A stretch of 64,000 bases of DNA from assembly GCA_016715625.1 (NCBI GenBank), contig JADJZU010000007.1, forward strand, positions 13,237 through 77,236, read 5' to 3'. Positions 34,339-59,393 of the stretch are shown here, in pieces (within the stretch, counting starts at the first letter, position 1; the number at the start of each line of letters is the position of its first letter). The DNA is from Bacteroidota bacterium (GTDB lineage Bacteria > Bacteroidota > Bacteroidia > Chitinophagales > LD1). Position numbers and translations under genes: made by a program. The notes beneath the pieces are model-generated. The model had not been told where the DNA came from. It did not search any database and worked only from the letters and a program-made list of their open reading frames with translations.

Positions 34339-34581
34339 GGTTCAGCTTGTTTTAGGCTGCGAAAGTAATTTTCCTTGTTGGTGAGCAAGCTTTCGCGATT
34401 AAAAGTACTCACCCTGTAAAGAAAAAGATGAAAGAATCTGCATCAGCAAAATGCTGGACCCATCGTTGGAAGAAACCATGAACCGCGAGAAGCAACTAAT
34501 CTTTAAAGAAAATTGGTTGCCCGGCAACGTCTACTCCATAAAATATTTCCCTTTTCTTACGTTAGTGCATATACATAAACG

Positions 34582-35551
34582 ATGCAAAAACAAAAGCTAC
34601 GTTTTTTAGGCGATACGTTGGGGCTTGCTCCTTTTCCTCTCCGCTTTAAACAAGCCATGATAGCCATACGTGGCGAGGAAGATGTGCCGCCATCGCGCTG
34701 GGGGCTCAGCAGTTTATCGCAACTGCATTTAAAAGTATCGCATAAATTGTGGAGGGGTAAACCATACCTTGAAAACACGGTGCTTATCTCTAACCTGTTT
34801 AACCATCTGCAAACGCCTATTGAAGAAGGATGGTCCGTACAGAAAACACAGACCCGCGACTTTCGGGAAGAAACCTTACCTACAACAGCCACACGGAACC
34901 GATTTTGCTATCCGGTGGGTTCTTTGGTGTGCACTGCAGCACCGGCAGGTAGTGGCCGTGCTGTCGCAATTTAACCGGGGTGGTTTAAAAGTATTTATCG
35001 ACCACGGAGAGGGCTTAATGACCTGCTATGCACACTTGGCTAAAAGCATAGTGCAGCCGGGCGATGAGCTGGAGCGCGGTCAGGCTATTGCTATTTCGGG
35101 CTACAGTGGTTTAGATGCCGCAGTTACTTTTCCGTTTGGTGTGCCGCATGTGCATTTTAATGTTTGGCTGAACGGAGAACCGGTTGACCCTTTTGCGCAT
35201 CAAGAGCATACCGGCTTATGGATAGCCGGTGAATTGCCTGCTCCGGCTACCGATAGTAAAAGCAGTTTCACCCCATCTATCTATAACCCTTCCCAGGTGC
35301 AGCAGGCCATTGGCTATTGTAAAACACCATGGGTGCGCGAACAATTATTACAGCAGCAGGACTTACACCTGCGTGGAGCTCACACCATTATTGAAATGAA
35401 CTATTACCCTACCCGCTTTACCAACCGCGTTAACGTGTACGATAAAACTTATCCGCGTACACCGCGCTTTGATTTACCTTTCAGCAGCAGCGAATTTCAG
35501 CAGGTTGTTTTTCTGGATGATGTGTTGCCCTCACTTATCAGGAAGAATTAG
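34582..35551 (+). pseudogene. M23 family metallopeptidase, frameshifted
   Basis: The M23 signature elements are split across two frames within about 100 bp. HGTDFAI is in the frame of track ORF 34769... PVGSLVCTAAPAG is in the frame of track ORF 34582... VVAVLSQFNRGGLKVFIDHGEGLMTCYAHL...VPHVHFNVW returns to the first of those frames. This requires at least three frame changes between ~34860 and ~34950. Confidence 0.7.
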
Positions 35552-35580
35552 ATTTACCATCGCTCAAATAGCGAAGTGGT

Positions 35581-36972
35581 ATGAACAAGCAGAGATACGA
35601 ATTCCCTGAACAGGCAAAGCCCATAGCCGAATTGCTGGAAACGGTAAAACAGAAAAAACAAAAAGATATTGACTGGCGAAGTGGCAAAGCTTTTTGCTTA
35701 ATCTATCACCCGGGCGAAGGCGCGAGGTGAACATAAAAAGGTGTTTGACCAATACTATGCCGACAGTGCCTTAAACCCAACCGCCCCCCAGCCTGGCAGA
35801 AATAGAAAGCGAAACGGTAGCCAGTGGCCGATTTATTTCATGGCGATGAGCAGGTGTGCGGAAACGCAACCACCGGTGGCACCGGAGAGTATTATACTGG
35901 CCGTAAAGACCGCCCGCGATTGGGCGCGCAACCACAAACCACAGATAACTAAACCGCATGTGGTGGTGCCCGAATCGGTTCACCCGGCCTTTTCAAAGCC
36001 TTCCATTATTTAAACAGACGGCTGTAAAAACAGGTGCAGACTACCGCGCAGATGTTACAGCAATGGAAAAAGCAATAACATCCGATACGAATTGCTGGTA
36101 GGTTCTGCACCCTCTTACCCTTAGGGGTAATTGACCCCATTGAAGAAATAGCGGCACTGGCAAAAGAAGAACCTGTTATGCCATGTAGATGCCTGTGTGG
36201 GCGGTTTTATTCTTCCGTTTTAAAGAACTGGCTATTCCGCGTTTCGATTTTGAGGTAGACAGGGGTTACTTCCTCTCGGCCGACATACATAAATGCGGTT
36301 ACGCCCAAGGGGCTTGGTCATTCTATATCGCACGCACGAGTTACGCAAATTTCAATTTTCGCTGTATACGAAATGGGCTGGTGGTGTATGGGTTCGCCTA
36401 CTATTACCGGTACGCGCTCCGGTGCTAACATTGCGGCAGCATGGGCGGCTATTAACTCAATAGGCAAACAGGGTTATACAGAAATGGCAAAGGCTACCAT
36501 GCAAACTACGGAACGCATTAAGCAGTTTGTAGCAGAAACCGAAGAGTTGGAACTGATGGGTAAAACCGATATGTGCATTGTTGCTTTTAAAAGCGCTACG
36601 ATAGATGTATACATGCTGGCCGATGAGCTGAATAAAAAGGATGGCATTTTGAACGGCACAGTTGCTTTACCGTTAACTACATACATCGCACGGTGGTCGA
36701 AGATTTTATTGTTGATTTAAAACAAGCCATTGCCGATGTTCGCGCCAAGCGAATGGCACAGATGGGCAACAAACTGCAATCTGCCGTGGTAAAAGGCCTG
36801 AGCAGTATATTACCCGAAGGCTCTATTGCCCGCCTGCAGAAAGACTCGAAACCCGATTTAAACAACGAGAACAAAGCTGCCATGTATGGCATGATGGGGG
36901 CGCTTTCCGGCACATGATCTGGACAAGATTGTGCTCGATTTTTTAGATAACATCTATACCGCCAAAAACTAA
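35581..36972 (+). pseudogene. PLP-dependent sphingosine-1-phosphate-lyase / group II decarboxylase-like gene, heavily frameshifted
   Basis: Recognisable segments are scattered over all three plus frames. They include MNKQRYEFPEQAKPIAELL, EHKKVFDQYYADSALNP, PSLAEIESETVA, HGDEQVCGNATTGGT, ESIILAVKTARDWARNHKPQITKPHVVVPESVHPAFSK and VIDPIEEIAALAKE. LSADIHK-GYA carries the PLP lysine motif. Further segments are GSPTITGTRSGANIAAAWAAINSIGKQGY, VEDFIVDLKQAIADVRAK and DLDKIVLDFLDNIYTAKN. By my reading there are at least ten frame changes or in-frame stops. Confidence 0.75.
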
Positions 36973-36979
36973 AGGCTAT

Positions 36980-37579
36980 ATGTTGGAGGCAATGGGCCAG
37001 GGTATACTTACCGGTCTGGTTTTAGCAACGTTTATTGGCCCTATCTTTTTTGCCGTGGTGGACCTGGGCTTAAAAGGAAATGTAAAAGGGGCGGCTTATA
37101 TAGCCCTGGCACTTTTGTAAGCGATATTTTTATGGGTGCTGTTTATTTACCTGGTGGCAAAGCAGATAGAAAAAGATTCGATGCTGATGCAGGCAATGTA
37201 TGTGGCGGTGGCTTGGTGCTGGTGGTAGCTTGGCTTGCAAAATCTGCTCAAGACCAAAGTGACCAGTGCACACCGCCATGAATCCAAAAGATAGGTGGAG
37301 TTGTTTCGAGAGGCTTCTCATTAACGCTACCAACCCGAATGTTTTCTTCTTTTGGTTTGGGGCGGTTATGGTGGCAGTTCATCAATACCACAATCAAGCG
37401 CCATTGGTGCTCACGCATTTTGTAAGTGCCTTAACCGTAGTGTTCACCACCGATTTCCTGAAGGGCTATGCCGCATCGCTCCTTCGACCTTACATCAAAC
37501 CAAACACGCTCACCTACCTCAGCCGCGTGTCGGTATCATCCTCATTTACTTTGGTGTAAAGCTGATGTTGTTTCATTAA
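36980..37579 (+). pseudogene. LysE/RhtB family amino-acid exporter, frameshifted
   Basis: The gene starts MLEAMGQGILTGLVLATFIGPIFFAVVDLGLKG and then hits a stop. Later segments sit in other frames: LINATNPNVFFFWFGAVMVAV...LTHFVSALTVVFTTDFLKGYAASLLRPYIKP and GIILIYFGVKLMLFH. Confidence 0.7.
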
Positions 37580-37855
37580 ATAAAGCGTTTGCAAACCCGG
37601 GTTCCGCTACTTATCGGCCTGCCCGCGGTAGCTTCAGGCCAAAAGGACCAAGCTCCGGGCTGTTCCCTTCGATAAATCCGAAGGCCGAAGGCATTAGAAA
37701 AGGAATGTTGTCCGTTTACAGGCGGCTAAAGCCCCGCCTCCTGCTACTCAAAACTGCCGCTGCACCTGCTCTCTGACTCCTATTCCAATAAATGAGACGG
37801 CCTTTTGTTAGCAGCGGAAAATGCTCTGTTTATATGTAGCATAAGCGGTTTTTTG

Positions 37856-37933
37856 GTATAAACCGCATACCAATTAGTATAAACCAACGACTAATTAGTA
37901 TAAACCGCATACCGATTGGTATAAACCGCATAC
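37856..37933. repeat. Four tandem 21-bp units with core GTATAAACCGCATAC (iteron-like or operator array)
   Basis: Units start at 37856, 37877, 37898 and 37919. Units 1, 3 and 4 share an identical 15-nt core. Unit 2 is degenerate (GTATAAACCAACGAC). The core is itself GTAT-N7-ATAC, so its ends are inverted repeats. Confidence 0.8.
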
Positions 37934-38224
37934 TGCACCGCTCCAAACGCCTTTTGTGCTCTTGCACATGAGCAGCCGATGGCATTAATTTGTGTATCAC
38001 ATTTAAACTCTACTTGGTTAAGCGCAGCACTCCGCTGGCGGTTAATTTATGAGCGGGAAACGGTTTTCGTCTCCTAAACCTCCATCTTCTTGTAGTTGCA
38101 AAACGTTCGTGTGAATGTGTAGGCAACAGCCGAACTTAACTGCAAGAAATTATCTTTGATAGATTACAAAATAAAATGGGGAAGCTGAAAACCAACTAGA
38201 GTAAGCAACATCAAACATTAAACA

Positions 38225-38708
38225 ATGAAAAAAAAGTACAGCTGTTGGCACTCGTATTTTTGACAAGCCATTTGGCAATTAACATTTTATCCAATGGAAG
38301 GGAAACCATAGTGAAACTATCCAACTCAGGAATGAAATATCAAGAGAGCTGCTGGCCTAGAAACCTAGACCACTCTATTTTAAAGACATTGACATTCCCC
38401 ACGCTTCCTAATTTGACAAATGTAGAGGTGGCCTATGTATCGGAAACAACCTTTGATTTAGATGCCTGTTATATATTATCAGGATGATAAACTGGCAAAC
38501 AGCAGATGAATCGGGTGCTTTGAGCCTGGTAAAGAAGCTACAGTTTCTGTATATAACATAGCCGGTGAAGTGGTGAGAACTTATACGCTTGACAGTAACT
38601 ATAAAGAATTACTGATAGATTCCCTCGAATTTAGTAATGGCACCTATTTATGTCATATACAATCAAATGATCTTACGATAGCCAACAAAGATGGTTGTTC
38701 AAAGATAA
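38225..38708 (+). pseudogene. Small T9SS type-A CTD protein, frameshifted
   Basis: An ATG is followed by an A8 run. The signal-peptide-like VQLLALVFLTSHLAIN sits in a shifted frame. The C-terminal part reads ATVSVYNIAGEVVRTYTLDSNYKELLIDSLEFSNGTYLCHIQSNDLTIANK (Por_Secre_tail-like) and needs further frame changes. The expected ending KMVVQR-stop is out of frame. Confidence 0.6.
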
Positions 38709-38988
38709 AACACCACTGCTGAAAACCCTCGCACGTCCTTCGAAGAGGACGCTGCGCAATCCTTTTCAAAGTATAACATTTCTTAATGGTGGGTGTACCA
38801 CCCATCATTACTTGACTCAGAGTCATTATTATAGGACTCCACTTAAGCAAAGGCGAATCGGTTTAAGTTCAGCGCCACGCAGGCGAAGAATTCGTTCCTT
38901 ACCCGTAGGTGTCCCACATGCCGAAACCAACCAATTGTTAGCCGAAACCATAAAGATTACTTTGCACCCCCTTAACTGACGAACAAAA

Positions 38989-39636
38989 ATGGCAACAACC
39001 CTCTCCCATACCGAAAAACAAAAACTTTACAAGTTCGCTTTTGGGCTTGCTGTTTTTACCATCTTCTATAACATAGCAGAAGGTCTTGTTTCTACCTACC
39101 TGGGTTACGAGGCCGAAAGTTTAACCCTGTTCGGCTTTGGGGCCGACAGCTTTATAGAAGTGGTGTCCGGTCTTGGCATTGCTCACATGCTATACCGCAT
39201 TCAACAACATCCCGATAGCAATCGCAACAAGTTTGAACGAACTGCATTACGGGTAACAGGGTTTGCTTTTTACGCTTTAGTGGTGCTGCTGGTAGTAACC
39301 GCTCTGTATAATATCGGGACCGGTCATAAACCTGAATCCACCTTTTGGGGTGTAGTCATATCTGTCATCTCCATTGTGGTGATGCTGGTTTTAATTTACG
39401 GCAAAACAAAAGTGGGCACACAACTTAACTCTGACGCCATTCTTGCAGACGCGGAATGCACAAGGGTTTGCATTTATATGTCTGTTATTCTGTTACTAAG
39501 CAGTGGCATTTACGAGTTAACCAACTTTGCTTACACAGACAGTATTGGCTCCCTCGCACTGGCTTACTTTTCATTCAAGGAGGGTAAGGAGTGTTTTGAT
39601 AAAGCAAAGTCAGACAAGCTTTGCACATGTGGCTAA
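38989..39636 (+). CDS. Cation-efflux (CDF-like) membrane protein, transmembrane domain only
   Basis: The 215-aa product has six predicted helices. NIAEGLVSTYLG and FGADSFIEVVSG resemble the Asp/Glu-containing TM2 region of cation diffusion facilitators. The C-terminal tail is Cys-rich (KLCTCG). Confidence 0.6.
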   Translation: MATTLSHTEKQKLYKFAFGLAVFTIFYNIAEGLVSTYLGYEAESLTLFGFGADSFIEVVSGLGIAHMLYRIQQHPDSNRNKFERTALRVTGFAFYALVVLLVVTALYNIGTGHKPESTFWGVVISVISIVVMLVLIYGKTKVGTQLNSDAILADAECTRVCIYMSVILLLSSGIYELTNFAYTDSIGSLALAYFSFKEGKECFDKAKSDKLCTCG

Positions 39637-45014: not shown

Positions 45015-45596
45015 TTATTTGCGGGTTCCGTTTAAAATTAAATCAGTGAAAATTTCTGCAACGCGTTCAATGCTGTAGCCCTCTTTTACATGATACCAGC
45101 GGTAACTCCAGTTCAGCATGCCTAAGATGCCCTTTACAACCATCTTGTAGTCCATCTCTTCTCTGAAATCGCCTCGCTTTACACCTTCAGCAAATATCTC
45201 AAGCCATCCGCTTTCGTATTGGCGTATCAATTGAAAAATATCGTTGCTCGATGTTTTGTTGATGAGTTGCAAATCCTCTGAAATAAATACCCCGAAGGCA
45301 TCGAGGTTATTATGGAAAAGATGCAGGTGGCTCACCGTGCATAATTTTATCTTATCAGCTGGAGTATGTTCTTTGTCTTTAATGCTATCGAGCAGCGATA
45401 CGCTTTGCTCCAGAATATCTTCTACCAAACCTTTCAGCAAATCTTCTTTGGTGGATATATAGTAATACAAACTGCCTTTCTGCATACCCAAAGCATCGGC
45501 CACATCCTGTATCCGCGTGGCATGGTAGCCTTTGGTACGAAATACCTTGGCTGCCTTTTTAAGAATTTCTGTCTTTTTGAGATCGTGCTTTACCAT
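45015..45596 (-). CDS. TetR/AcrR family transcriptional regulator
   Basis: The N-terminal HTH reads [36 protein letters not shown]. The gene lies directly upstream of the thiolase on the same strand. Confidence 0.85.
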
Positions 45597-45683: not shown

Positions 45684-47240
45684 TTACTTGCTGCTCAGTT
45701 TGATAAGCGGAACAATCATTTCTTCCAACGAGATACCGCCATGCTGAAACGTATTCTTGTAAAAGTTTACAAAGTGGTTGTAGTTGTTGGGGTACACCAG
45801 GTATTTGTCCTCTTTGGCAAAAATGTAGGTGGAACTCAGTCGGCTTTTGGGCAAACCGATAGATTCGGGTTCGCGAACGGTGTAAACGTCTTTCTCTTCA
45901 AAGTTGAGGTTCCGCCCGTTTTTGTATCGAATGTTGGTGGTGGTTTCGCGGTCGCCAATACAGCGCGAAGGAGATTGAACGCGCATCGTTCCATGGTCGG
46001 TCGTCAATAACACGTTTACATCTTTTTCGGCCAGCTTCTTCAAGGCGTTTTGCAAGGGCGAATGATCGAACCAAGACACAGAGAGCGAGCGATAAGCGGC
46101 TTCGTCACTCGCCAATTCTTTTAATACTTCCATTTCGGTGCGCGCGTGCGAAAGCATGTCCACAAAATTGTAGACAATCACGGTCAACTTATTGTTGTAA
46201 TAGTTGCTGATGTTGTTTTCCAGCAATTCCCCATCGCGGTGGTTGGTTATTTTTACGTATTGGTGTTTGATGGGTTCATGAAAAGTTCTTTTCAGAAATG
46301 CTTCCAGAAAATCTGCTTCAAACAGGTTTTTTCCTCCTTCATCATCATCGTTTTTCCATTTGTCCGGAAACTGCTTTTGAATATCGGCAGGCATCATGCC
46401 GGCAAAAATGGCATTGCGGGCATATTGGGTAGCAGTGGGTAAGATGGCATAAAAAGACTCTTCGGAATCCACCCTGAAATTTTCCATCACCATAGGTTGT
46501 ATCGCTTTCCATTGGTCATAGCGGAGATTATCAATCAGGATGAGGAAAGTGGGCTTATTCTCTTTCAGCATAGGCACCAGCTTCTGCCGAAGCAGGTTGT
46601 GGCTCATAACAGGGGCATTGTCCCCCGGCTCTGTGTTTACCCATGTTTTATAATTTTTAATCACAAACTTGTTGAATTCGCGGTTGGCCTCTTCTTTTTG
46701 TGATTCAAAAATCTGCTTCATGCTTGAATCACTTTTGTCCAGCTCCATTTCCCAATAAATGAGCTTTTTGTAAAGCTCGGCCCATTCATTAAAGTTCATG
46801 TGCTCTTGTATCTGCATAAAAAGCTTCTGGAACTCTTGTTGGTAGTTGGATGTTGTTTTCTCTGTGATCAAACGGCTGTTGTCAATGATTTTTTTGAGGG
46901 TAGAAAGAATCTGCTGCGGTTTCACGGGTTTAATGAGGTAATCCGCAATCTGCGAACCAATAGCATCTTCCATTAGATTTTCCTCCTCGTTTTTGGTAAT
47001 CATTACACAAGGTAAATGCTGGTTAATTTCCTTGATGCGTTGCAGGGTTTCCAGGCCGGTGAGTCCTGGCATGCTTTCGTCTAAAAAAACCACGTCAATT
47101 CCTTTGGCTGTTACTTTATCAATGGCATCTTTTCCATTGGTAACCGGAATCACCTTGTAGCCTTTATTTTCCAGGAACATAATGCTGGGTTTCAGTAAAT
47201 CTATTTCATCGTCTGCCCAGAGGATAGTAATTGCGGCCAT
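45684..47240 (-). CDS. porX: PorX-type response regulator (receiver domain + PglZ/alkaline-phosphatase-like domain)
   Basis: The N-terminal receiver is canonical (ILWADDEIDLL, FLDESMPG, VMITK, ADYLIKP). It is followed by a ~400-aa PglZ-like domain (LIDNLRYDQW...DMLSHAR...TTDHG). I set the start at the ATG at 47240. Confidence 0.8.
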   Translation of the reverse strand: MAAITILWADDEIDLLKPSIMFLENKGYKVIPVTNGKDAIDKVTAKGIDVVFLDESMPGLTGLETLQRIKEINQHLPCVMITKNEEENLMEDAIGSQIADYLIKPVKPQQILSTLKKIIDNSRLITEKTTSNYQQEFQKLFMQIQEHMNFNEWAELYKKLIYWEMELDKSDSSMKQIFESQKEEANREFNKFVIKNYKTWVNTEPGDNAPVMSHNLLRQKLVPMLKENKPTFLILIDNLRYDQWKAIQPMVMENFRVDSEESFYAILPTATQYARNAIFAGMMPADIQKQFPDKWKNDDDEGGKNLFEADFLEAFLKRTFHEPIKHQYVKITNHRDGELLENNISNYYNNKLTVIVYNFVDMLSHARTEMEVLKELASDEAAYRSLSVSWFDHSPLQNALKKLAEKDVNVLLTTDHGTMRVQSPSRCIGDRETTTNIRYKNGRNLNFEEKDVYTVREPESIGLPKSRLSSTYIFAKEDKYLVYPNNYNHFVNFYKNTFQHGGISLEEMIVPLIKLSSK

Positions 47241-47348
47241 GGTGTTTGGTAGTGGTTTTGCTTGTATCATGCAAGTATAAAGCGATAACCGGTATTTTAT
47301 TGTGTAAGCGACTTGTTAAGAAAATGAAAACCCGGAGAGGGCCATTCT

Positions 47349-54187: not shown

Positions 54188-54276
54188 GTGCTTCGAGGGC
54201 GAATATGCAAAAAAAAGGTGCAGCCACTTACCTCTTCTTGTTCCGGCTGCTATGGGTGAGCGTTGTTATTTCTTTT

Positions 54277-54292
54277 TATGATTTTTATCAAA
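54277..54292. promoter_or_regulatory. Candidate CRP/FNR-type operator S1 (TATGATTTTTATCAAA)
   Basis: The core is TGAT-N4-ATCA. The site lies in the divergent intergenic region between the MMPL-fusion gene (start 54187, minus) and the WG-repeat gene (start 54372, plus). Confidence 0.4.
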
Positions 54293-54371
54293 GAAAATTA
54301 ATGGACGATGCTTACTTTTGTGCTATCAACAGAAACAAAATCTATATTAGCATCGCACAAAAAATAAGCAC

Positions 54372-54839
54372 ATGAAACATTTAGCATCCTTTTTACTTCT
54401 GGTGGCCGCTCTATCATTAAATGCCCAGGAAATTACGCAGCAATACGACAAGATTGACAAATTTGACCAGGGAGTTGCGGTAATGTGGAAGAACGGCAAG
54501 TGCGGTTTGGTGTCACAAACAGGTAAAGAGATTATCAAACCGCAATTCGACAACATTGGTCGGTTTGGGAGAGATGGAATCGCTTATACCCACAAAAACG
54601 GCTTAATGGGTTTGGTGAACATGACAGGCAAAGTGATAGTTGACAACATTTATGGCGACATTGGTCGTTTCAATGGGTTTTGGGCAATCACTCGAAAAAA
54701 CGGGCTTGCCGGTATGATAAACAAACAAGGTAAAGTGCTTATTGAGAACAAGTACGAATCCATTAAAGTGGAGAAAGGTGGCATCATCCGAGGAGTGATT
54801 GGCGGTAAAGAAGTTATCCTTACGTTAAAAGACGAGTAA
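54372..54839 (+). CDS. WG-repeat (KWG-like) secreted protein
   Basis: The product has a signal peptide. It has three to four repeats of the type KNGKCGLVSQTGKEIIKPQFDNIGRF, KNGLMGLVNMTGKVIVDNIYGDIGRF and KNGLAGMINKQGKVLIENKYESI. Confidence 0.7.
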   Translation: MKHLASFLLLVAALSLNAQEITQQYDKIDKFDQGVAVMWKNGKCGLVSQTGKEIIKPQFDNIGRFGRDGIAYTHKNGLMGLVNMTGKVIVDNIYGDIGRFNGFWAITRKNGLAGMINKQGKVLIENKYESIKVEKGGIIRGVIGGKEVILTLKDE

Positions 54840-54865
54840 CTACGATTTAAAATTTTTTTTAAAAG

Positions 54866-54896
54866 AGGTCACCCAAAGCTGGTGACTTCTTTTTTT
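54866..54896 (+). terminator. Rho-independent terminator after the WG-repeat gene
   Basis: The stem pairs GGTCACC (54867-54873) with GGTGAC (54881-54886). It is followed by TTCTTTTTTT. Confidence 0.6.
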
Positions 54897-54952
54897 ACCC
54901 GATTTTTAGTTCTTTGTAAATCAGTCGATTAGGTCTTTAGAGTTTTTGTTTT

Positions 54953-54968
54953 GGTGATTTATATCATC
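54953..54968. promoter_or_regulatory. Candidate CRP/FNR-type operator S2 (GGTGATTTATATCATC)
   Basis: The site is centred about 61 bp upstream of the regulator gene's ATG at 55022. It matches S3 at 14 of 16 positions. Confidence 0.45.
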
Positions 54969-55021
54969 ATTTCTGATTTCCTCTTTTTTTTAACATTGCC
55001 AACACAAACATCTGTTAGCAA

Positions 55022-56080
55022 ATGCCTAAAATCCTACTCATTGAATCTTCGAAGGATTATCGAAACTCCATCACCGAGATACTGACCATGGCCGGATATG
55101 ATGTGATAACTGCTGCGGATGGAAAAACCGGCTTTTCCACTGCCGTCAGAGAAGTTCCGGATTTGATTATCTGCGATGTTTTAATTCCCCTTCTTGATGG
55201 CTATGGAGTTTTGAAATTGGTGAGCCACGAACCGGTACTGAGCGCTATTCCATTTATTTCGCTTACCCATAAAACTGAATGGGCAGAAATGCGTAAACTT
55301 ATCACCTTAGGGGCAGATGATTACCTCAGTCGGGATGCCGATAGTTCAGATTTGCTGTTAGCGGTGGAAGCACAAATAGCAAAAAGCCGAAGGATGAAAG
55401 CTGATCGAATAGCTAATGGAAGTGAACAGGCCAGAGAAGTTTTGCAATCCAAGCACGTTAGCCTGCTCCATTTTGTTGGAAACGGACGAGATAAAAGACG
55501 GTTCAAGAAGAAACAGATTATTTATTCGGAGGGGGAACGAAACGGGTATCTCTACTTTGTGTTGAGTGGTAGTGTGAAATGTTTTGTTACCAGTGATCAG
55601 GGTAAAGAATTGATTACAGACTTTTTTACCGAAGGCGATTTTTTTGGCTTTTATTCATTGATTTCGGGCTTGCCTCATTCCGATTCTGCCGAGGCTATGA
55701 GCGAAACCGAGTTGATTCTGATTCCCAAAAAGGAGTTTACGGAGGTGATGGAAAAGGATAGCACACTCTCCAAAGAGTTTACCCGTATTTTAAATAAACA
55801 AGTAGCCGACCGCGATGATGTTCTCGTTAGCATTGCTTACGATTCAGCCCGAAAACGGGTGGCCAACGGCCTACTTAAAGTCTTCGAAAAGTTTAAAAAG
55901 AAAGCGAATGGGACTAATGAGGTAAATATAGGTCGTACCGATTTGGGCAATATGTGTGGGGTTACCAAGGAATCCACTATTCGTATTTTATCTGACCTGA
56001 AAGAAGAAAAGCTGATTGATATAGTCGACAGCAAGATTATTGTGCTGCAGCAAGACAAACTCCGTAATTTGGTTAACTGA
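55022..56080 (+). CDS. Hybrid transcriptional regulator: receiver (REC) domain + cNMP-binding domain + Crp/Fnr-type HTH
   Basis: The first ~120 aa are CheY-like (KILLIESS, LIICDVLIPLLDG, PFISLT, GADDYLSRD). A cNMP-binding beta-barrel follows (IIYSEGERNGYLYFVLSGSVKC...GDFFG). The C-terminal HTH reads RTDLGNMCGVTKESTIRILSDLKEEKLI. Confidence 0.8.
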   Translation: MPKILLIESSKDYRNSITEILTMAGYDVITAADGKTGFSTAVREVPDLIICDVLIPLLDGYGVLKLVSHEPVLSAIPFISLTHKTEWAEMRKLITLGADDYLSRDADSSDLLLAVEAQIAKSRRMKADRIANGSEQAREVLQSKHVSLLHFVGNGRDKRRFKKKQIIYSEGERNGYLYFVLSGSVKCFVTSDQGKELITDFFTEGDFFGFYSLISGLPHSDSAEAMSETELILIPKKEFTEVMEKDSTLSKEFTRILNKQVADRDDVLVSIAYDSARKRVANGLLKVFEKFKKKANGTNEVNIGRTDLGNMCGVTKESTIRILSDLKEEKLIDIVDSKIIVLQQDKLRNLVN

Positions 56081-56094
56081 TATCTCTACACAAT

Positions 56095-56110
56095 GGTGAT
56101 GTAGATCATC
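56095..56110. promoter_or_regulatory. Candidate CRP/FNR-type operator S3 (GGTGATGTAGATCATC)
   Basis: The site is centred about 101 bp upstream of the ATG at 56204, in the 123-bp intergenic region after the regulator gene. Confidence 0.45.
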
Positions 56111-56116
56111 TCTTTC

Positions 56117-56132
56117 GATGATTCATATCACT
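56117..56132. promoter_or_regulatory. Candidate CRP/FNR-type operator S4 (minus strand reads AGTGATATGAATCATC)
   Basis: The plus strand reads GATGATTCATATCACT. The reverse complement matches the GGTGAT-N4-ATCATC pattern at 11 of 12 specified positions. Its centre is 22 bp from the S3 centre, about two helical turns. Confidence 0.45.
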
Positions 56133-56203
56133 GGTGTGCTGTAGGCTGTTGAGGCACTCCTGGGTTATAATTGCGCTTCACTTAAAACGCAAAATATCAT
56201 CCC

Positions 56204-58519
56204 ATGATTAAAGAAATTACTAAACATCTTTCTAAACTGACATTAGCAGTTTTAATACTGCTAAGTTCAACCGCAGTCTTTGCCGGCACGCAATATGTTG
56301 CCAATCCGGGTATTACATTTGTCGATAATCTTACACAATGGAATGCGGCATTTGCAGCAGCGGGGCCCTCAGCATTACCAGCCTATGATGAGTATTATAT
56401 CGGTTCGGGCAGTGCGATTATTGTTGGTAAAATTACCGGCACCACCAATAACGTAGACCTCACCGGTGGTATTGATAAACGGATTATTATTCAGAGCGGT
56501 GGCGCTTTAGGATTCAGATCGCAGGGTTTTAATGCCTTGCACCTGTCGCCCGCTTCGGTAGTGGAAGTGGAACCAAACGGACAGTTGGGTTTTTACTTGT
56601 TGATTCCTGCCAACTTTGGCGGTCAGGGCAATTCAGCAGGCTCCGATTGGTATGGAAATACCAACGAGTTTCTGTTCTTTACCCCCACTTTCCCGGGCAC
56701 TCCGGGTGCTACCCCTGCTATCAAAGGACCTTATGTGATAGCGCCTACCGGTTTCGGTACGGTGTTAGATGTTTCGGATGCGGGTATCCCAGCACTGTCG
56801 GCTCCTAAAACCAGAATCTGGAATGGTAGTGCCTTTGATTATGACTGGAACAATGCCAATAACTGGGCCCCTGTGCAAACGGCCGGTGGTCCGGTGTTTT
56901 CTGTTCCATCCGGTACTGACGTAGCGATTATACCTGATTCCAATCAATTGGGCGTACCCACCATCAGTTACCCGGAGTTGCAAACACAAAATATAACCGT
57001 TCATGATTTGGTAGTGGAAGATGAAGCGTATGTGGGGATTGATTTTGCCAGTTCGCTCAACGTAACCGGTGATGTGGTGAATATCGGCACTATCTCACTG
57101 CAAGCCGGTGGTGCGTTGAAAGTAGCAGACGCTACCGACTGGGTGGCCAACATAGGCGGAGACTCTATCGGCTTTCTTTATGTAAACCTCAACCTGGCGG
57201 GTCCATCTCCTTGGTTTATGAGTAGTATGTATGTAACCGGAGCACCTTCGGCCTGGGGCTCCAGTTGCGGTGATGCACAGATTGTGCCTACCGCCTGCGA
57301 TGCGCCATCGCTGGGCAGCACTACTTTTTGCACCATGGAACTTAACCAGAGCAACACGGCCACTGCGCTTAACTGTTCTCACTCTTTGTGGAATTATAAA
57401 TCCAGTGGATTGTTTACCCCCGGCAGAGGTTTCTCGTTGTATGCACCTTCCTTCTCGCCTACATGGAGAGGAGCCGACCCGCACACCGATCCGGTATCGT
57501 ATGGTCCGCTGGGGTATTCCAATCTGGGTAATTTGAATTTGCCGGCCGGTTTTGGTGGCACAGTTACTCGTGGCTGGCATATGTTGGGCAATCCTTATTC
57601 TTGCCCTATTGAACTGACCGCAGCCGACAGAGCCGCTATGGGCTTTGAGGGACAAATGCATTTTTGGGATAATGGTTCATGGGTAAGTCCTGCTCCGGGT
57701 GCTACGGTAACAGTAGCGGTAGGTCAGGGCTTTCAGATGCGCGTAGCCGGTGGCGTTGGTGGCTCCGCTACTTTTGCCGTCAACGAAGCGCACCGCAAAA
57801 CAACTACCGGTGTTACCTTCTACAAAACCGAAGAAAACGATGCGTATGTAAACATTACGATTGGTGATGGCGCATTTACTAATAAGGCTTCTGTTTACTT
57901 CGTAGATGGTGCTACCGATGCGTTTGATGGGGCGTATGATGCAAACCGTTTGTTTGGTTTAGTAGAGCGCCCTTATGTTTACACCATTGAGCAAAACGGA
58001 GAGTTTCTTTCTTACAATGCCCTTCCGTTGCTGGTCAGCGGCACGACCAAATCGGTTCCGCTATCGGTGCACATTGGTGTAAATGGCACTCACACGCTTA
58101 CGTTTGATGGTATTGATGCAGCTAACGCTACAGTGGTATTGGAAGATTTAACAAGCGGCAATATGTATCCTGTTACCGAAGGATATGTGCACAGTTTTTC
58201 AGCTCAAACAAGTGATAATCCAAATCGCTTTGTGTTGCACTTTAGCGCAAACGCAGTTTCCGGTATTAAGAACATGAATAATAGCAATGTAACCTTGTTC
58301 CCAAATCCTACTACCGGTCGTGCTACTATCATGCTTAATGAAAATCACGGATTCAATAAAGTAACGGTTCTGGATTTTTCAGGTAGAGTAGTTTATTCAG
58401 AGGCACTTGCTGCATCTGACATGAGCAAAACATTCGAAGTTTCAGGCATGTCAAGCGGTATCTATACGGTGAGACTTACCGGAACAACCACCGCTACACA
58501 GAAGTTAATTAAACAGTAA
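56204..58519 (+). CDS. Large secreted protein with a T9SS type-A C-terminal sorting domain
   Basis: The 771-aa product has the signal peptide LTLAVLILLSSTAVFAG. I recognised no catalytic domain. The C-terminal part reads VTLFPNPTTGRATIMLNENHGFNKVTVLDFSGRVVYSE...GIYTVRLTG...QKLIKQ. Confidence 0.75.
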   Translation: MIKEITKHLSKLTLAVLILLSSTAVFAGTQYVANPGITFVDNLTQWNAAFAAAGPSALPAYDEYYIGSGSAIIVGKITGTTNNVDLTGGIDKRIIIQSGGALGFRSQGFNALHLSPASVVEVEPNGQLGFYLLIPANFGGQGNSAGSDWYGNTNEFLFFTPTFPGTPGATPAIKGPYVIAPTGFGTVLDVSDAGIPALSAPKTRIWNGSAFDYDWNNANNWAPVQTAGGPVFSVPSGTDVAIIPDSNQLGVPTISYPELQTQNITVHDLVVEDEAYVGIDFASSLNVTGDVVNIGTISLQAGGALKVADATDWVANIGGDSIGFLYVNLNLAGPSPWFMSSMYVTGAPSAWGSSCGDAQIVPTACDAPSLGSTTFCTMELNQSNTATALNCSHSLWNYKSSGLFTPGRGFSLYAPSFSPTWRGADPHTDPVSYGPLGYSNLGNLNLPAGFGGTVTRGWHMLGNPYSCPIELTAADRAAMGFEGQMHFWDNGSWVSPAPGATVTVAVGQGFQMRVAGGVGGSATFAVNEAHRKTTTGVTFYKTEENDAYVNITIGDGAFTNKASVYFVDGATDAFDGAYDANRLFGLVERPYVYTIEQNGEFLSYNALPLLVSGTTKSVPLSVHIGVNGTHTLTFDGIDAANATVVLEDLTSGNMYPVTEGYVHSFSAQTSDNPNRFVLHFSANAVSGIKNMNNSNVTLFPNPTTGRATIMLNENHGFNKVTVLDFSGRVVYSEALAASDMSKTFEVSGMSSGIYTVRLTGTTTATQKLIKQ

Positions 58520-58553: not shown

Positions 58554-58760
58554 ATGAATAATTTAAATAAAATACTCGGTTTAACTTTCCTGTTAATGGT
58601 AGGTTTTGCATACATAACTAACGCTCAGGTGCCGCCTCCGGGTAACACCACTCCCTCTGCAGTCCCCATTGATGGAGGAGTGATAAGCATTGTAGGGGCA
58701 AGTATTGCTTACGGTGCCAAAAAGCTATACGATAAAAACAAAGCGAAAAAAGGAGAATAA
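58554..58760 (+). CDS. 68-aa precursor: signal peptide + ~13-16 aa Pro/Thr-rich core + PID-GG / TM helix / Lys-rich C-terminal sorting-signal-like tail
   Basis: The signal peptide is MNNLNKILGLTFLLMVGFAYITNA, with a likely cleavage site after TNA. The core is QVPPPGNTTPSAV. The tail has the motif PIDGG, the helix VISIVGASIAYGA and the basic cluster KKLYDKNKAKKGE. This is the tripartite layout of PEP-CTERM-class signals. The gene starts 34 bp after the upstream gene's stop. Confidence 0.6.
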   Translation: MNNLNKILGLTFLLMVGFAYITNAQVPPPGNTTPSAVPIDGGVISIVGASIAYGAKKLYDKNKAKKGE

Positions 58761-58783
58761 TTCCTTTTTATTTTAAACAAAAA

Positions 58784-58812
58784 CCGCTGCTGAAACAGGC
58801 AGCGGTTTTTTT
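58784..58812 (+). terminator. Strong rho-independent terminator between the precursor gene and the exosortase-like gene
   Basis: The stem pairs CCGCTGC (58784-58790) with GCAGCGG (58799-58805) across an 8-nt loop. A T7 run follows (58806-58812). The next ATG is only 12 bp downstream. Confidence 0.75.
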
Positions 58813-58823
58813 ATTTATGCATC

Positions 58824-59393
58824 ATGCTGAGGCAACTGCTGAAAAAAGTTTTTAGTAATGAACTGCTGATTGAGCCGGCTGAGTTTATCATAAAAGTGGC
58901 TATGGTTTATGCTCTGTGGCGTGGGCTTAAATATTGCGGAGAAACATACCCGGGTTTTTTGTGGGGTGGCTGGGCAGCCTTTTATGACTTTATCGGTAAC
59001 CTGCTTGCGTATTGTAATTCAGTTATATTAAATGTGATGGGCATTCAGCACATACATGAGAAGAGAGTAATTATTGTAGCGGGGACCAATGGTATTGAAT
59101 TCAGCGACTTGTGTTTGGGCATTGCCCCCATGTTTATTTACAGCGGTATTATTCTCGCATTTGGCACTAATCTGAAAGCTAAACTGTGGTTCATTCCCAT
59201 GGGTGTATTCTTGATTTTCCTGATTAACGTTTTTCGCTTATTAGCACTCATTCTTATCCAGGCACGCTATAACAGTTATTTTGATTTTGCACATGATTAC
59301 CTTTATGTAGTGGTAACTTACAGTTTGATATTTGTGCTGGTAATGTGGTGGATGAATCGCTGGGCGTTTGCAGGCGAGGAGAATGCCGGTTAG
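58824..59393 (+). CDS. Exosortase/archaeosortase-family membrane protein (short form of XrtF-like size)
   Basis: The 189-aa polytopic product shows the family pattern in the expected order and spacing. LNVMGIQ...VIIVAGTNGIEFSDLCLGIAPM carries the candidate catalytic Cys. FLINVFRLLALILI carries the conserved Asn-x-x-Arg. FDFAHDYLYVVVTYSLIFVLVMWWMNRW carries the conserved His. This was compared from memory with the XrtF-type motifs EGCNAIS / LNVxRI / H. Confidence 0.7.
   Translation: MLRQLLKKVFSNELLIEPAEFIIKVAMVYALWRGLKYCGETYPGFLWGGWAAFYDFIGNLLAYCNSVILNVMGIQHIHEKRVIIVAGTNGIEFSDLCLGIAPMFIYSGIILAFGTNLKAKLWFIPMGVFLIFLINVFRLLALILIQARYNSYFDFAHDYLYVVVTYSLIFVLVMWWMNRWAFAGEENAG

Follow-up and report, generated by a model that had tools for sequence, protein, structure and literature searches.

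Palindromic Crp/Fnr-type sites around an orphan receiver-Crp regulator gene in a Bacteroidota genome, and the promoter architecture of its family

Introduction

The sequence considered here is a stretch of 64,000 nucleotides, referred to throughout as the window, from a Bacteroidota bacterium (Chitinophagales; LD1; assembly GCA_016715625.1, contig JADJZU010000007.1, positions 13,237-77,236 of the forward strand). Within it, four palindromic sites, designated S1 to S4, lie in the intergenic DNA around a gene for a regulator in which a receiver domain is fused to a Crp/Fnr-type DNA-binding module. An initial annotation of the window, made from its sequence, took the sites for operators of CRP/FNR geometry linked to this neighboring regulator, and proposed autoregulation through S2 and a small regulon that joined the locus to an adjoining lipid cluster. 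Conservation in related genomes, a motif found throughout the regulator's family and the phasing of the sites to promoters all point to such operators and to a small, autoregulated local regulon. We put at about 0.7 the probability that S1 to S4 function as Crp/Fnr-type operators of the adjacent regulator.

Gene content and palindromic sites of the locus

The genes at the site cluster are arranged in the order MMPL fusion (minus strand), WG-repeat gene, regulator gene, type IX secretion system (T9SS) cargo gene, PID-CTERM gene and exosortase X-like gene. The MMPL-acyltransferase-methyltransferase fusion, of 1214 amino acids, is encoded on the minus strand upstream of the WG-repeat gene (54372..54839, plus strand), whose 155-amino-acid product matches Pfam WG_beta_rep with E = 1.7e-19. 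The regulator gene (55022..56080, plus strand) is an orphan encoding 352 amino acids with the Pfam domains Response_reg, cNMP_binding and HTH_Crp_2, and its receiver is atypical. It is followed on the same strand by the cargo gene (56204..58519; 771 amino acids), the predicted main target, in whose product domain searches recognized nothing apart from the T9SS tail, Por_Secre_tail. The island is flanked by an aryl-polyene/flexirubin-like lipid cluster with genes for an ApeI-like protein, LolA, ketosynthases, an acyl carrier protein and a halogenase-like protein.

Reading of the sequence verified the coordinates and the letters of all four annotated sites. S1 (TATGATTTTTATCAAA, 54277..54292, centered on 54284.5) lies between the MMPL fusion and the WG-repeat gene and S2 (GGTGATTTATATCATC, 54953..54968, centered on 54960.5), the predicted autoregulatory site, upstream of the regulator gene, while S3 (GGTGATGTAGATCATC, 56095..56110, centered on 56102.5) and S4 (GATGATTCATATCACT, 56117..56132, centered on 56124.5) form the distal and proximal members of a tandem before the cargo gene. 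All four are of the form TGAT-N4-ATCA, with a two-fold symmetric TGA-N6-TCA core in a site of about 16 bp. The identity of S2 and S3 at 14 of 16 positions and the 22 bp between the centers of S3 and S4 are likewise as first reported. A further candidate, the weak operator S0 (GGTGAGCGTTGTTATT, TGA-N6-TTA; 54255..54270, centered on 54262.5), was read from the sequence exactly 22 bp upstream of S1, center to center; it goes unscored by an exact-core position weight matrix (PWM). No partner site was seen by eye 22 bp to either side of S2.

An exhaustive search of the window for TGATNNNNATCA returned five exact matches, against 1.36 +/- 1.22 in dinucleotide shuffles. The motif had been described as confined to intergenic regions, which holds for four of the five matches but not for a fifth that was overlooked (CCTGATTCCAATCAAT; core 56935-56946, 16-mer 56933..56948) and lies inside the T9SS cargo coding sequence. 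This match is absent from the related contig L106 introduced below, and we judge it a chance occurrence, with one or two such matches expected at random over 64 kb. The three consecutive intergenic regions that hold S1 to S4 (54188-54371, 54840-55021 and 56081-56203) sum to 489 bp (184 + 182 + 123) rather than the roughly 430 bp given earlier. When every 4-Ng-4 palindrome with g = 0-8 and a G or C in the half-site was counted in these 489 bp, as a correction for the look-elsewhere effect, TGAT-N4 came out on top with four copies, and in 0 of 2000 dinucleotide shuffles did any palindrome reach four. A PWM derived from related loci scored above 10 bits in the whole window only at S1 to S4 and at one coding match; S1 was the top match with 16.3 bits, and the remaining intergenic DNA of the window, about 7 kb, contained no match above 10 bits.

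Conservation of the sites in related genomes

Exact look-ups of the window regulator and of P0002 yielded no record, and loci syntenic with the window were reached through members of the regulator protein clusters. Three of them are metagenome contigs (L106-L108) that are identical to one another over 2.3 kb spanning the three intergenic regions; the L106 regulator (P0121) falls in a cluster whose representative is 79% identical to the window regulator. Phylogenetic footprinting placed S1, S2, S3 and S4 all at aligned positions in L106, with the 22-bp spacing of S3 and S4 kept. Between the two genomes the core positions are identical at 32 of 32, compared with 7 of 16 positions in the N4 spacers and 56% of the other intergenic columns, and the 21 kb of L106 contain no further exact TGAT-N4-ATCA match.

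A more closely related regulator, 91% identical to that of the window, is encoded in L111, where S1 and S2 are retained exactly amid diverged flanks, together with S0. The half-sites of S1 are kept in both L106 and L111, with an altered spacer in L106; S2 is unchanged in L111 and has the form GATGATTTATATCATC in L106, the sequence immediately upstream being unrelated; and S3 keeps its half-sites in L106 around an altered spacer. S0 is kept as GGTGAGCGCTGTTATT in L111 and as GGTGACCATTGTTATT in L106, next to upstream DNA that is scrambled. The conserved intergenic blocks also take in the -7 boxes discussed below. Purifying selection acts on the half-sites and not on the spacer.

The cargo and PID-CTERM genes are missing from L111. 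The exosortase-like gene (82% identical to that of the window over 137 amino acids) there stands directly after the regulator gene, without boxes, and the absent segment runs from just after S4 to a hairpin at 58779-58810 of the window. The L111 DNA that aligns to S3 and S4 is degenerate, with no site of fewer than three mismatches left. Because L106 keeps S1 to S4 and L111, without the cargo gene, has lost S3 and S4 only, the sites are kept where their target is present and decay where it is missing. The gap in L111 looks as if the cargo and PID-CTERM genes were an insertable or deletable cassette.

A Bacteroidota family of receiver-Crp regulators and its box

Database searches found more than 2,275 full-length homologues of the regulator at E <= 1e-20 and 100% coverage. 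Among the 120 listed homologues, all have the three domains and about 350 amino acids and, apart from the protein itself and the 79% cluster, are 41-47% identical to it. Named sources are Bacteroidota, including Chitinophagaceae, Saprospiraceae, Cytophagales, Hymenobacter and others. Scans of genomes and metagenomes found no close ortholog of the regulator; the best hits, 44% and 43% identical, were of use at the family level only. The window regulator is best described as a diverged orphan of a large Bacteroidota family, and literature searches, within the searchable library, turned up no account of Bacteroidota REC-Crp regulators, of their box or of PID-CTERM.

The box was analyzed in 80 genomic loci of homologous regulators. 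A gene for a PAS-HisKA-HATPase kinase occurs in 70 of the 80, usually immediately upstream of the regulator gene (45 gene maps), and recurrent neighbors encode CcoN (COX1), FixP, FixG, FixH, a CcoI-type P-ATPase, DsbD_2, Usp and Hsp20-like proteins. By gene content, these canonical loci resemble an FNR/FixK-type low-oxygen regulon in which kinase input and Crp-type output are brought together in a single response regulator.

Intergenic DNA of the 80 loci contains 79 copies of TGAT-N4-ATCA against 2.9 +/- 1.9 in shuffles, a 27-fold enrichment. TGAT-N4 is the most frequent 4-Ng-4 palindrome in this DNA, with composition-matched half-sites reaching at most 6, and the copies number 1.1-1.8 per kb up to 2 kb from the regulator gene. 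The family consensus is (A/C)TGAT-W4-ATCA(T/G), and the PWM of the subfamily to which the window regulator belongs is G-R-TGAT-N4-ATCA-Y-C. The base two positions out from TGAT is G in 5 of the 6 half-sites of S2 to S4 in the window and in 6 of 6 in L106, as against 18% in family sites, where G directly flanks TGAT in 5%. The G-rich flanks hint at recognition specific to the subfamily.

Promoter architecture

Distances are given from the center of a site to the first base of the downstream Bacteroidetes sigma-A -7 box, TAnnTTTG. Family sites fall into two sharp classes, at 51.5 bp (n = 33) and at 28.5-29.5 bp (n = 13); within 120 bp almost nothing lies outside the 28.5-29.5 and 50.5-52.5 classes, and no site center falls on the box or the start region. 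The flavobacterial sigma-A -7 box spans -12 to -5 (PMC9723704), and therefore the 51.5 and 29.5 classes correspond to about -63.5 and about -41.5. Among 32 distinct promoters of the 51.5 class, a TGA-N6-TCA follows 22 bp downstream in 25, exactly in 16 and with one mismatch in 9. Of the close pairs of exact boxes, 6 of 13 in the other loci, or 7 of 14 when S3-S4 is counted, have a spacing of exactly 22 bp. The genes behind phased boxes encode Hsp20-like proteins (9), CcoN (5), Usp (4), a family of about 130 amino acids (4), P-ATPases (3), kinases (2) and DoxX-like proteins (2). Canonical promoters, such as those at L012 8060-8140 and L051 7096-7170, have a strong distal box near -63.5 and a weaker TGA-N6-TCA near -41.5.

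In the window, a perfect -7 box (TACTTTTG, 54313..54320, plus strand) marks the predicted promoter of the WG-repeat gene and is identical in L106 and L111. S0 and S1 lie 50.5 and 28.5 bp before it, at about -62.5 and -40.5, with the same offsets in the ortholog. The order of the pair is reversed relative to the canonical promoters, the weak site being distal and the strong one proximal. The WG-repeat gene, which is syntenic in L106 and L111, is the predicted target of S0 and S1. Thus, of the earlier placement of S1 in a divergent promoter region between the MMPL and WG-repeat genes, the side facing the WG-repeat gene is borne out by phasing on the plus strand, but no phased box faces the MMPL operon. 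The sole candidate for a promoter toward MMPL, TTTTTTTG, was rejected as out of phase with the family (47.5 and 69.5 bp from S0 and S1), and control of the lipid operon is for this reason not supported. The proposed regulon link to the lipid cluster is weakened further by the occurrence of the module elsewhere, after rpsP-rimM-trmD, without that cluster.

Upstream of the regulator gene, a -7-like box with one mismatch to TAnnTTTG (TAACATTG, 54991..54998, plus strand; TAACGTTG at the same offset in the ortholog) is the predicted regulator promoter, and S2 lies 30.5 bp before it in both the window and L106, at about -42.5. A terminator-like hairpin with a T-run follows the WG-repeat gene (54868..54897, plus strand), and its stem is kept through altered bases in L106 and L111. 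This hairpin is predicted to isolate the regulator gene from upstream transcription, and the geometry of S2 is that expected for positive autoregulation.

The tandem before the cargo gene fits less closely. The sole candidate -7-like box there, TATAATTG (56166..56173, plus strand; TACCCTTG in the ortholog), is uncertain, with S3 and S4 placed 63.5 and 41.5 bp before it in the window and 62.5 and 40.5 bp before its counterpart in the ortholog. Taking TATAATTG as the box would put S4 and S3 near -53.5 and -75.5.

The regulator protein

The N-terminal 120 residues of the regulator form the Response_reg domain, and the C-terminal two thirds align best with FNR of A. fischeri (5cvr and related entries), the closest relative of solved structure, then with Vfr, CRP and FixK2, and also with FixK. 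K316, E317 and R321 align with the DNA-contacting residues R180, E181 and R185 of CRP, and E317 and R321 with E209 and R213 of FNR. The recognition helix, which was also read in 65 canonical regulators, is VTKESTIRIL in the window subfamily versus TATESLIRTL, and its E and R are invariant across the family. K316, at the position of CRP R180, was considered as the cause of the G-rich flanks and rejected, as 15 of the 65 canonical regulators have K there together with ordinary flanks.

Since the cAMP contacts E72 and R82 of CRP are replaced by F and H in a pairwise alignment (S83 corresponds to S), control of the regulator by cAMP is unlikely. No N-terminal Cys cluster of the FNR type was found in the family alignment, where C51 is the sole invariant Cys. 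The acceptor Asp of the receiver, D52 in the motif PDLIICD, is invariant. The remaining pocket is anomalous in a subfamily-specific way: the equivalent of D13 is S or A, and that of K109 is R, with D or E in place of the P that comes next. The window receiver thus has E-S-S and R-D and the subfamily E-[S/A]-S and R-[D/E]; of 116 canonical sequences, 112 have E-D and K-P. Searches of the window turned up neither a homologue of the family PAS kinase (F0) nor a second Crp paralogue. Because the receiver has lost its second acidic residue and the Lys-Pro pair and no kinase homologue lies in the window, the input to the regulator is probably not classical phosphorylation or phosphotransfer. No NCBIfam model is passed by the regulator, and to judge from its residues the protein is neither FNR proper, nor CRP proper, nor a canonical response regulator.

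The cargo module in other lineages

Orphan regulators of a second subgroup (P0119 and P0022), 45% identical to the window regulator and with the recognition helix LTKESTVRVL, are encoded after rpsP-rimM-trmD, with no lipid cluster in the vicinity. Right behind the regulator gene, these loci (L109, L112 and L115) have two exact boxes 22 bp apart, which in L112 and L115 stand 51.5 and 29.5 bp before TACAATTG. The tandem is followed by a homologue of the cargo gene (57% identity over residues 279-652 for the L109 copy, 52% for P0140 of L115) and then by a PID-CTERM gene. Upstream of the subgroup regulator gene, a one-mismatch box, TGAG-N4-ATCA, is found 31.5 bp before a TATAATTG or TATTATTG box. 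In L113, a cargo homologue of 40% identity has a single box, GTTGATCTAAATCAAC, which lies 29.5 bp before TACGTTTG and is the only TGA-N6-TCA in the 8.3 kb of that locus. L114, which is truncated at its 5' end, contains cargo, PID-CTERM and exosortase genes. The cargo family is very small: a database of 5.8 billion proteins yields only five other clusters at E < 1e-140. Homologues of the cargo gene carry boxes in three further genome contexts. The conserved unit thus consists of the regulator, a boxed promoter and the cargo gene with its PID-CTERM gene; the WG-repeat gene and the location in a lipid cluster are specific to a lineage.

The PID-CTERM gene of the window (58554..58760, plus strand) encodes a protein of 68 amino acids, scores 26.3 bits with NCBIfam NF046080 against a cutoff of 26, and is syntenic in L106, L114 and L115. 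Only 34 bp separate it from the cargo gene, with which it probably shares a transcript. A strong terminator-like hairpin, with a 13-bp stem and a T-run (58779..58810, plus strand), then parts it from the exosortase X-like gene (58824..59393, plus strand; 189 amino acids), whose product matches NF046081, exosortase X, with 102 bits, under the equivalog cutoff of 170, and is related but sub-threshold. In view of this hairpin, the exosortase X-like gene may fall outside the transcript driven from S3 and S4. The initial annotation had placed S3 and S4 upstream of an operon for cargo, precursor and exosortase-like protein; the cargo unit is upheld by the decay of the sites in L111 and by the boxed homologues, but the exosortase-like gene stands behind the hairpin.

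Other features of the window

A block of about 40 bp, GTGCTTCGAGGGCGAATATGCAAAAAAA..GTGCAGCCACTT (54188-54230), adjoins the start codon of the MMPL fusion on its upstream side and is almost invariant in three genomes (L106 9163-9205; L111 5167-5209). One annotation has an open reading frame (ORF) of 37 amino acids across it, and the block may be an MMPL promoter or leader. In the otherwise identical contigs L107 and L108, two calls each stand for the MMPL-fusion, GT2/DUF2062 and ketosynthase genes (L107 5517-9162 and 14316-15503; L108 18397-19591), which probably reflects frameshift errors or pseudogenes at the strain level.

Just outside the lipid cluster, and in the same order in L106, adjoin genes for a PorX-like protein (Response_reg + PglZ, 528 amino acids; 45684-47270, minus strand) and a TetR regulator (45015-45596, minus strand). 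This puts another T9SS-related regulator, the PorX-like protein, no more than 10 kb from the T9SS cargo gene. Farther away, long ORFs are almost absent from about 4.6 kb at 34400-38990, which contains fragments of an M23-like peptidase (34769-35551) and of a LysE-like protein (36980-37559) and a group-II decarboxylase-like protein broken across several frames (35581-36917); the region resembles either decayed genes or an assembly segment rich in indels. A 21-nucleotide tandem repeat, GTATAAACCGCATACCAATTA, occurs in 3.7 copies at 37856-37933. An Rfam scan of the window gave zero matches, and a sigma-70 promoter scan found 9 promoters against 10.6 expected, a result that is uninformative for Bacteroidota.

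Alternative explanations

Several observations weigh against the use of S1 to S4 by the adjacent regulator as functional operators. The core of the box is common to the whole family, such that a canonical paralogue encoded elsewhere in the genome could occupy the sites; the scan covered 64 kb of the source genome and 21 kb of an orthologous genome. Box density is still 0.3-0.7 per kb at 2-6 kb from canonical regulators, and the boxed cargo homologue of L113 has no regulator within the 6 kb available upstream. S3 and S4 lie about one helical turn upstream of the family mode, with no box at the canonical offset, and the promoter positions of the window generally rest on predicted -7 boxes, two of which contain a mismatch. 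A rival account, in which a canonical, kinase-paired low-oxygen paralogue binds the sites and the island is a branch of a global regulon, is favored by the L113 homologue, by the window core, identical to the family-wide TGAT-N4-ATCA box, and by the family-wide invariance of E and R in the recognition helix. We consider it unlikely, though the most serious of the alternatives: in two unrelated genomic settings the boxes accompany the orphan regulator gene, S2 to S4 have distinct G flanks, the subfamily has a recognition helix of its own, and the canonical paralogue is absent from the 64-kb window. Less probable again is that the local regulator binds as a repressor or a dual regulator, for instance by keeping the cargo operon and its own gene silent in the absence of a signal. 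The displacement of S3 and S4 from the canonical activating offsets is compatible with such a role, and the atypical receiver leaves the switching logic open. CRP/FNR activators use positions such as about -41.5 and about -63.5 at class I and class II promoters, however, and it is to these that the family sites are locked, with none centered on the -7 box or the start region within 120 bp; the imperfect -7-like boxes after S2 and S4 are, moreover, typical of activator-dependent promoters.

That the palindromes are structural elements of nucleic acid, such as a hairpin or terminator, a cruciform or the ends of an inserted island, is very improbable. S3 and S4 do fold together as a hairpin of about 20 bp (56088-56140; -22.1 kcal/mol, z = -4.4), just past the regulator stop codon, but no T-run follows it, the same region of L106 folds as two small separate stems (z = -2.1), and the folds differ again in L109, L112, L065 and L010. 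As the hairpin is not conserved in L106 or in the other tandems, it is probably a by-product of two similar palindromes standing side by side. The fold of S1 is not significant (z = 0.41), the spacers vary without compensation around invariant half-sites, and phasing to -7 boxes over dozens of unrelated promoters would not be expected of structures or insertion scars. Chance, as a product of AT-rich intergenic composition, is excluded. The count in the window is by itself only mildly unusual, the five matches expected at 1.36 being reached in 1 of 100 shuffles, but the look-elsewhere-corrected shuffles never reproduce the four intergenic copies, the core is fully conserved against a 56% background, and the family-wide enrichment is 27-fold.

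Proposed regulation and relation to known systems

With the adjacent regulator as the binder of its own neighboring sites, a dimer of the REC-cNMP-HTH_Crp protein would bind each of S0 to S4 through its helix-turn-helix, with K316, E317 and R321 as the contacts. The sites would all lie on the same helical face ahead of Bacteroidetes sigma-A promoters, from where the regulator most likely activates transcription in the manner of class II or tandem CRP/FNR activators, and two dimers would bind cooperatively at the 22-bp tandems. Regulated in this way would be the WG-repeat gene through S0 and S1, the regulator's own gene through S2 and the T9SS-cargo/PID-CTERM unit through S3 and S4. The arrangement of S0 to S4, their conservation, the family-wide enrichment of the box, the -7 phasing and the features of the protein are observed; we infer from them the local protein as the binder, activation, cooperative binding and the identity of the signal. 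The canonical members of the family, with their PAS histidine kinase, would constitute a fused FixJ/FixK-like low-oxygen circuit acting on cbb3-oxidase, Usp and Hsp20 genes.

The closest parallels are the FNR and FixK boxes of Proteobacteria (TTGAT-N4-ATCAA), which share with S1 to S4 the inverted-repeat geometry and the TGAT/ATCA core, and with the regulator the DNA-contacting Glu and Arg. The 28.5-29.5 class of the family, at about -41.5, matches FNR/FixK class II promoters; the canonical neighbors, fixNOP/fixGHIS-type cbb3-oxidase genes, Usp and Hsp20, likewise recall FNR/FixK regulons. Unlike FNR, the window regulator has a receiver domain in place of an N-terminal Cys cluster for an Fe-S center. 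The T that flanks TGAT is replaced by A or C in the family and by G or A in the window, the promoters here are of the Bacteroidetes -7/-33 kind, and the targets in the window are a WG-repeat gene and a T9SS cargo/PID-CTERM unit instead of respiratory genes. Similarities to Escherichia coli CRP are the dimeric architecture of cNMP domain and helix-turn-helix, the correspondence of K316/E317/R321 to R180/E181/R185, the GTGA-N6-TCAC-like half-sites of S2 to S4, and positions on one helical face at about -41.5 and -63.5. The loss of the cAMP contacts, the fixed 22-bp spacing of the tandems and the receiver fusion set the system apart from CRP at class I, class II and class III (tandem) promoters.

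In rhizobia, the FixL-FixJ-FixK system is wired from a kinase to a receiver, to Crp-type DNA binding and to a high-affinity oxidase. The canonical family resembles it in that a PAS histidine kinase gene directly precedes the regulator gene and boxed cbb3-oxidase genes are close by, and differs in that receiver and Crp-type domain form one polypeptide, with one tier fewer. The window protein departs further, with no adjacent kinase and a degenerate receiver. HP1043/HsrA, ChxR and JadR1 are atypical response regulators that work independently of phosphorylation. Like them, the window regulator is encoded by an orphan gene and retains the acceptor D52 with other pocket residues lost, but its output module is of the Crp/Fnr type, not of the OmpR or NarL type.

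Conclusions

A Crp/Fnr regulator with FNR-like boxes beside its own gene follows textbook logic. The regulatory logic of the locus is in this sense ordinary; the architecture of the regulator is uncharacterized, the promoter grammar is unusually rigid, and the orphan offshoot is rewired to a surface-protein module. A broader reading, to which we give roughly even odds, is that the family represents an undescribed Bacteroidota class of one-polypeptide FixJ-FixK hybrids with a PAS-kinase low-oxygen regulon and a rigid -63.5/-41.5 tandem grammar, and that the window holds a kinase-less, pseudo-receiver offshoot rewired to a mobile module of regulator, T9SS cargo and PID-CTERM that is present, absent or relocated among close relatives. 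If true, this would define a cis-code for activator-dependent transcription, of which hardly any are known in the phylum.

The code is testable in Bacteroidota, where activator-dependent architecture is poorly charted: (A/C)TGAT-W4-ATCA(T/G) placed 29.5 and 51.5 bp before TAnnTTTG. The canonical proteins are candidate regulators for the hypoxic induction of cbb3 oxidase in the Chitinophagia and Cytophagia lineages among the 80 loci, and regulon members can be predicted from the box across thousands of metagenome-assembled genomes. The window regulator would provide an example of a two-component output that was fused to a Crp scaffold, then lost its phosphorylation pocket and was redeployed to a T9SS cargo and PID-CTERM. 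The module, in turn, offers a handle on the function of the cargo, PID-CTERM and exosortase X-like genes.

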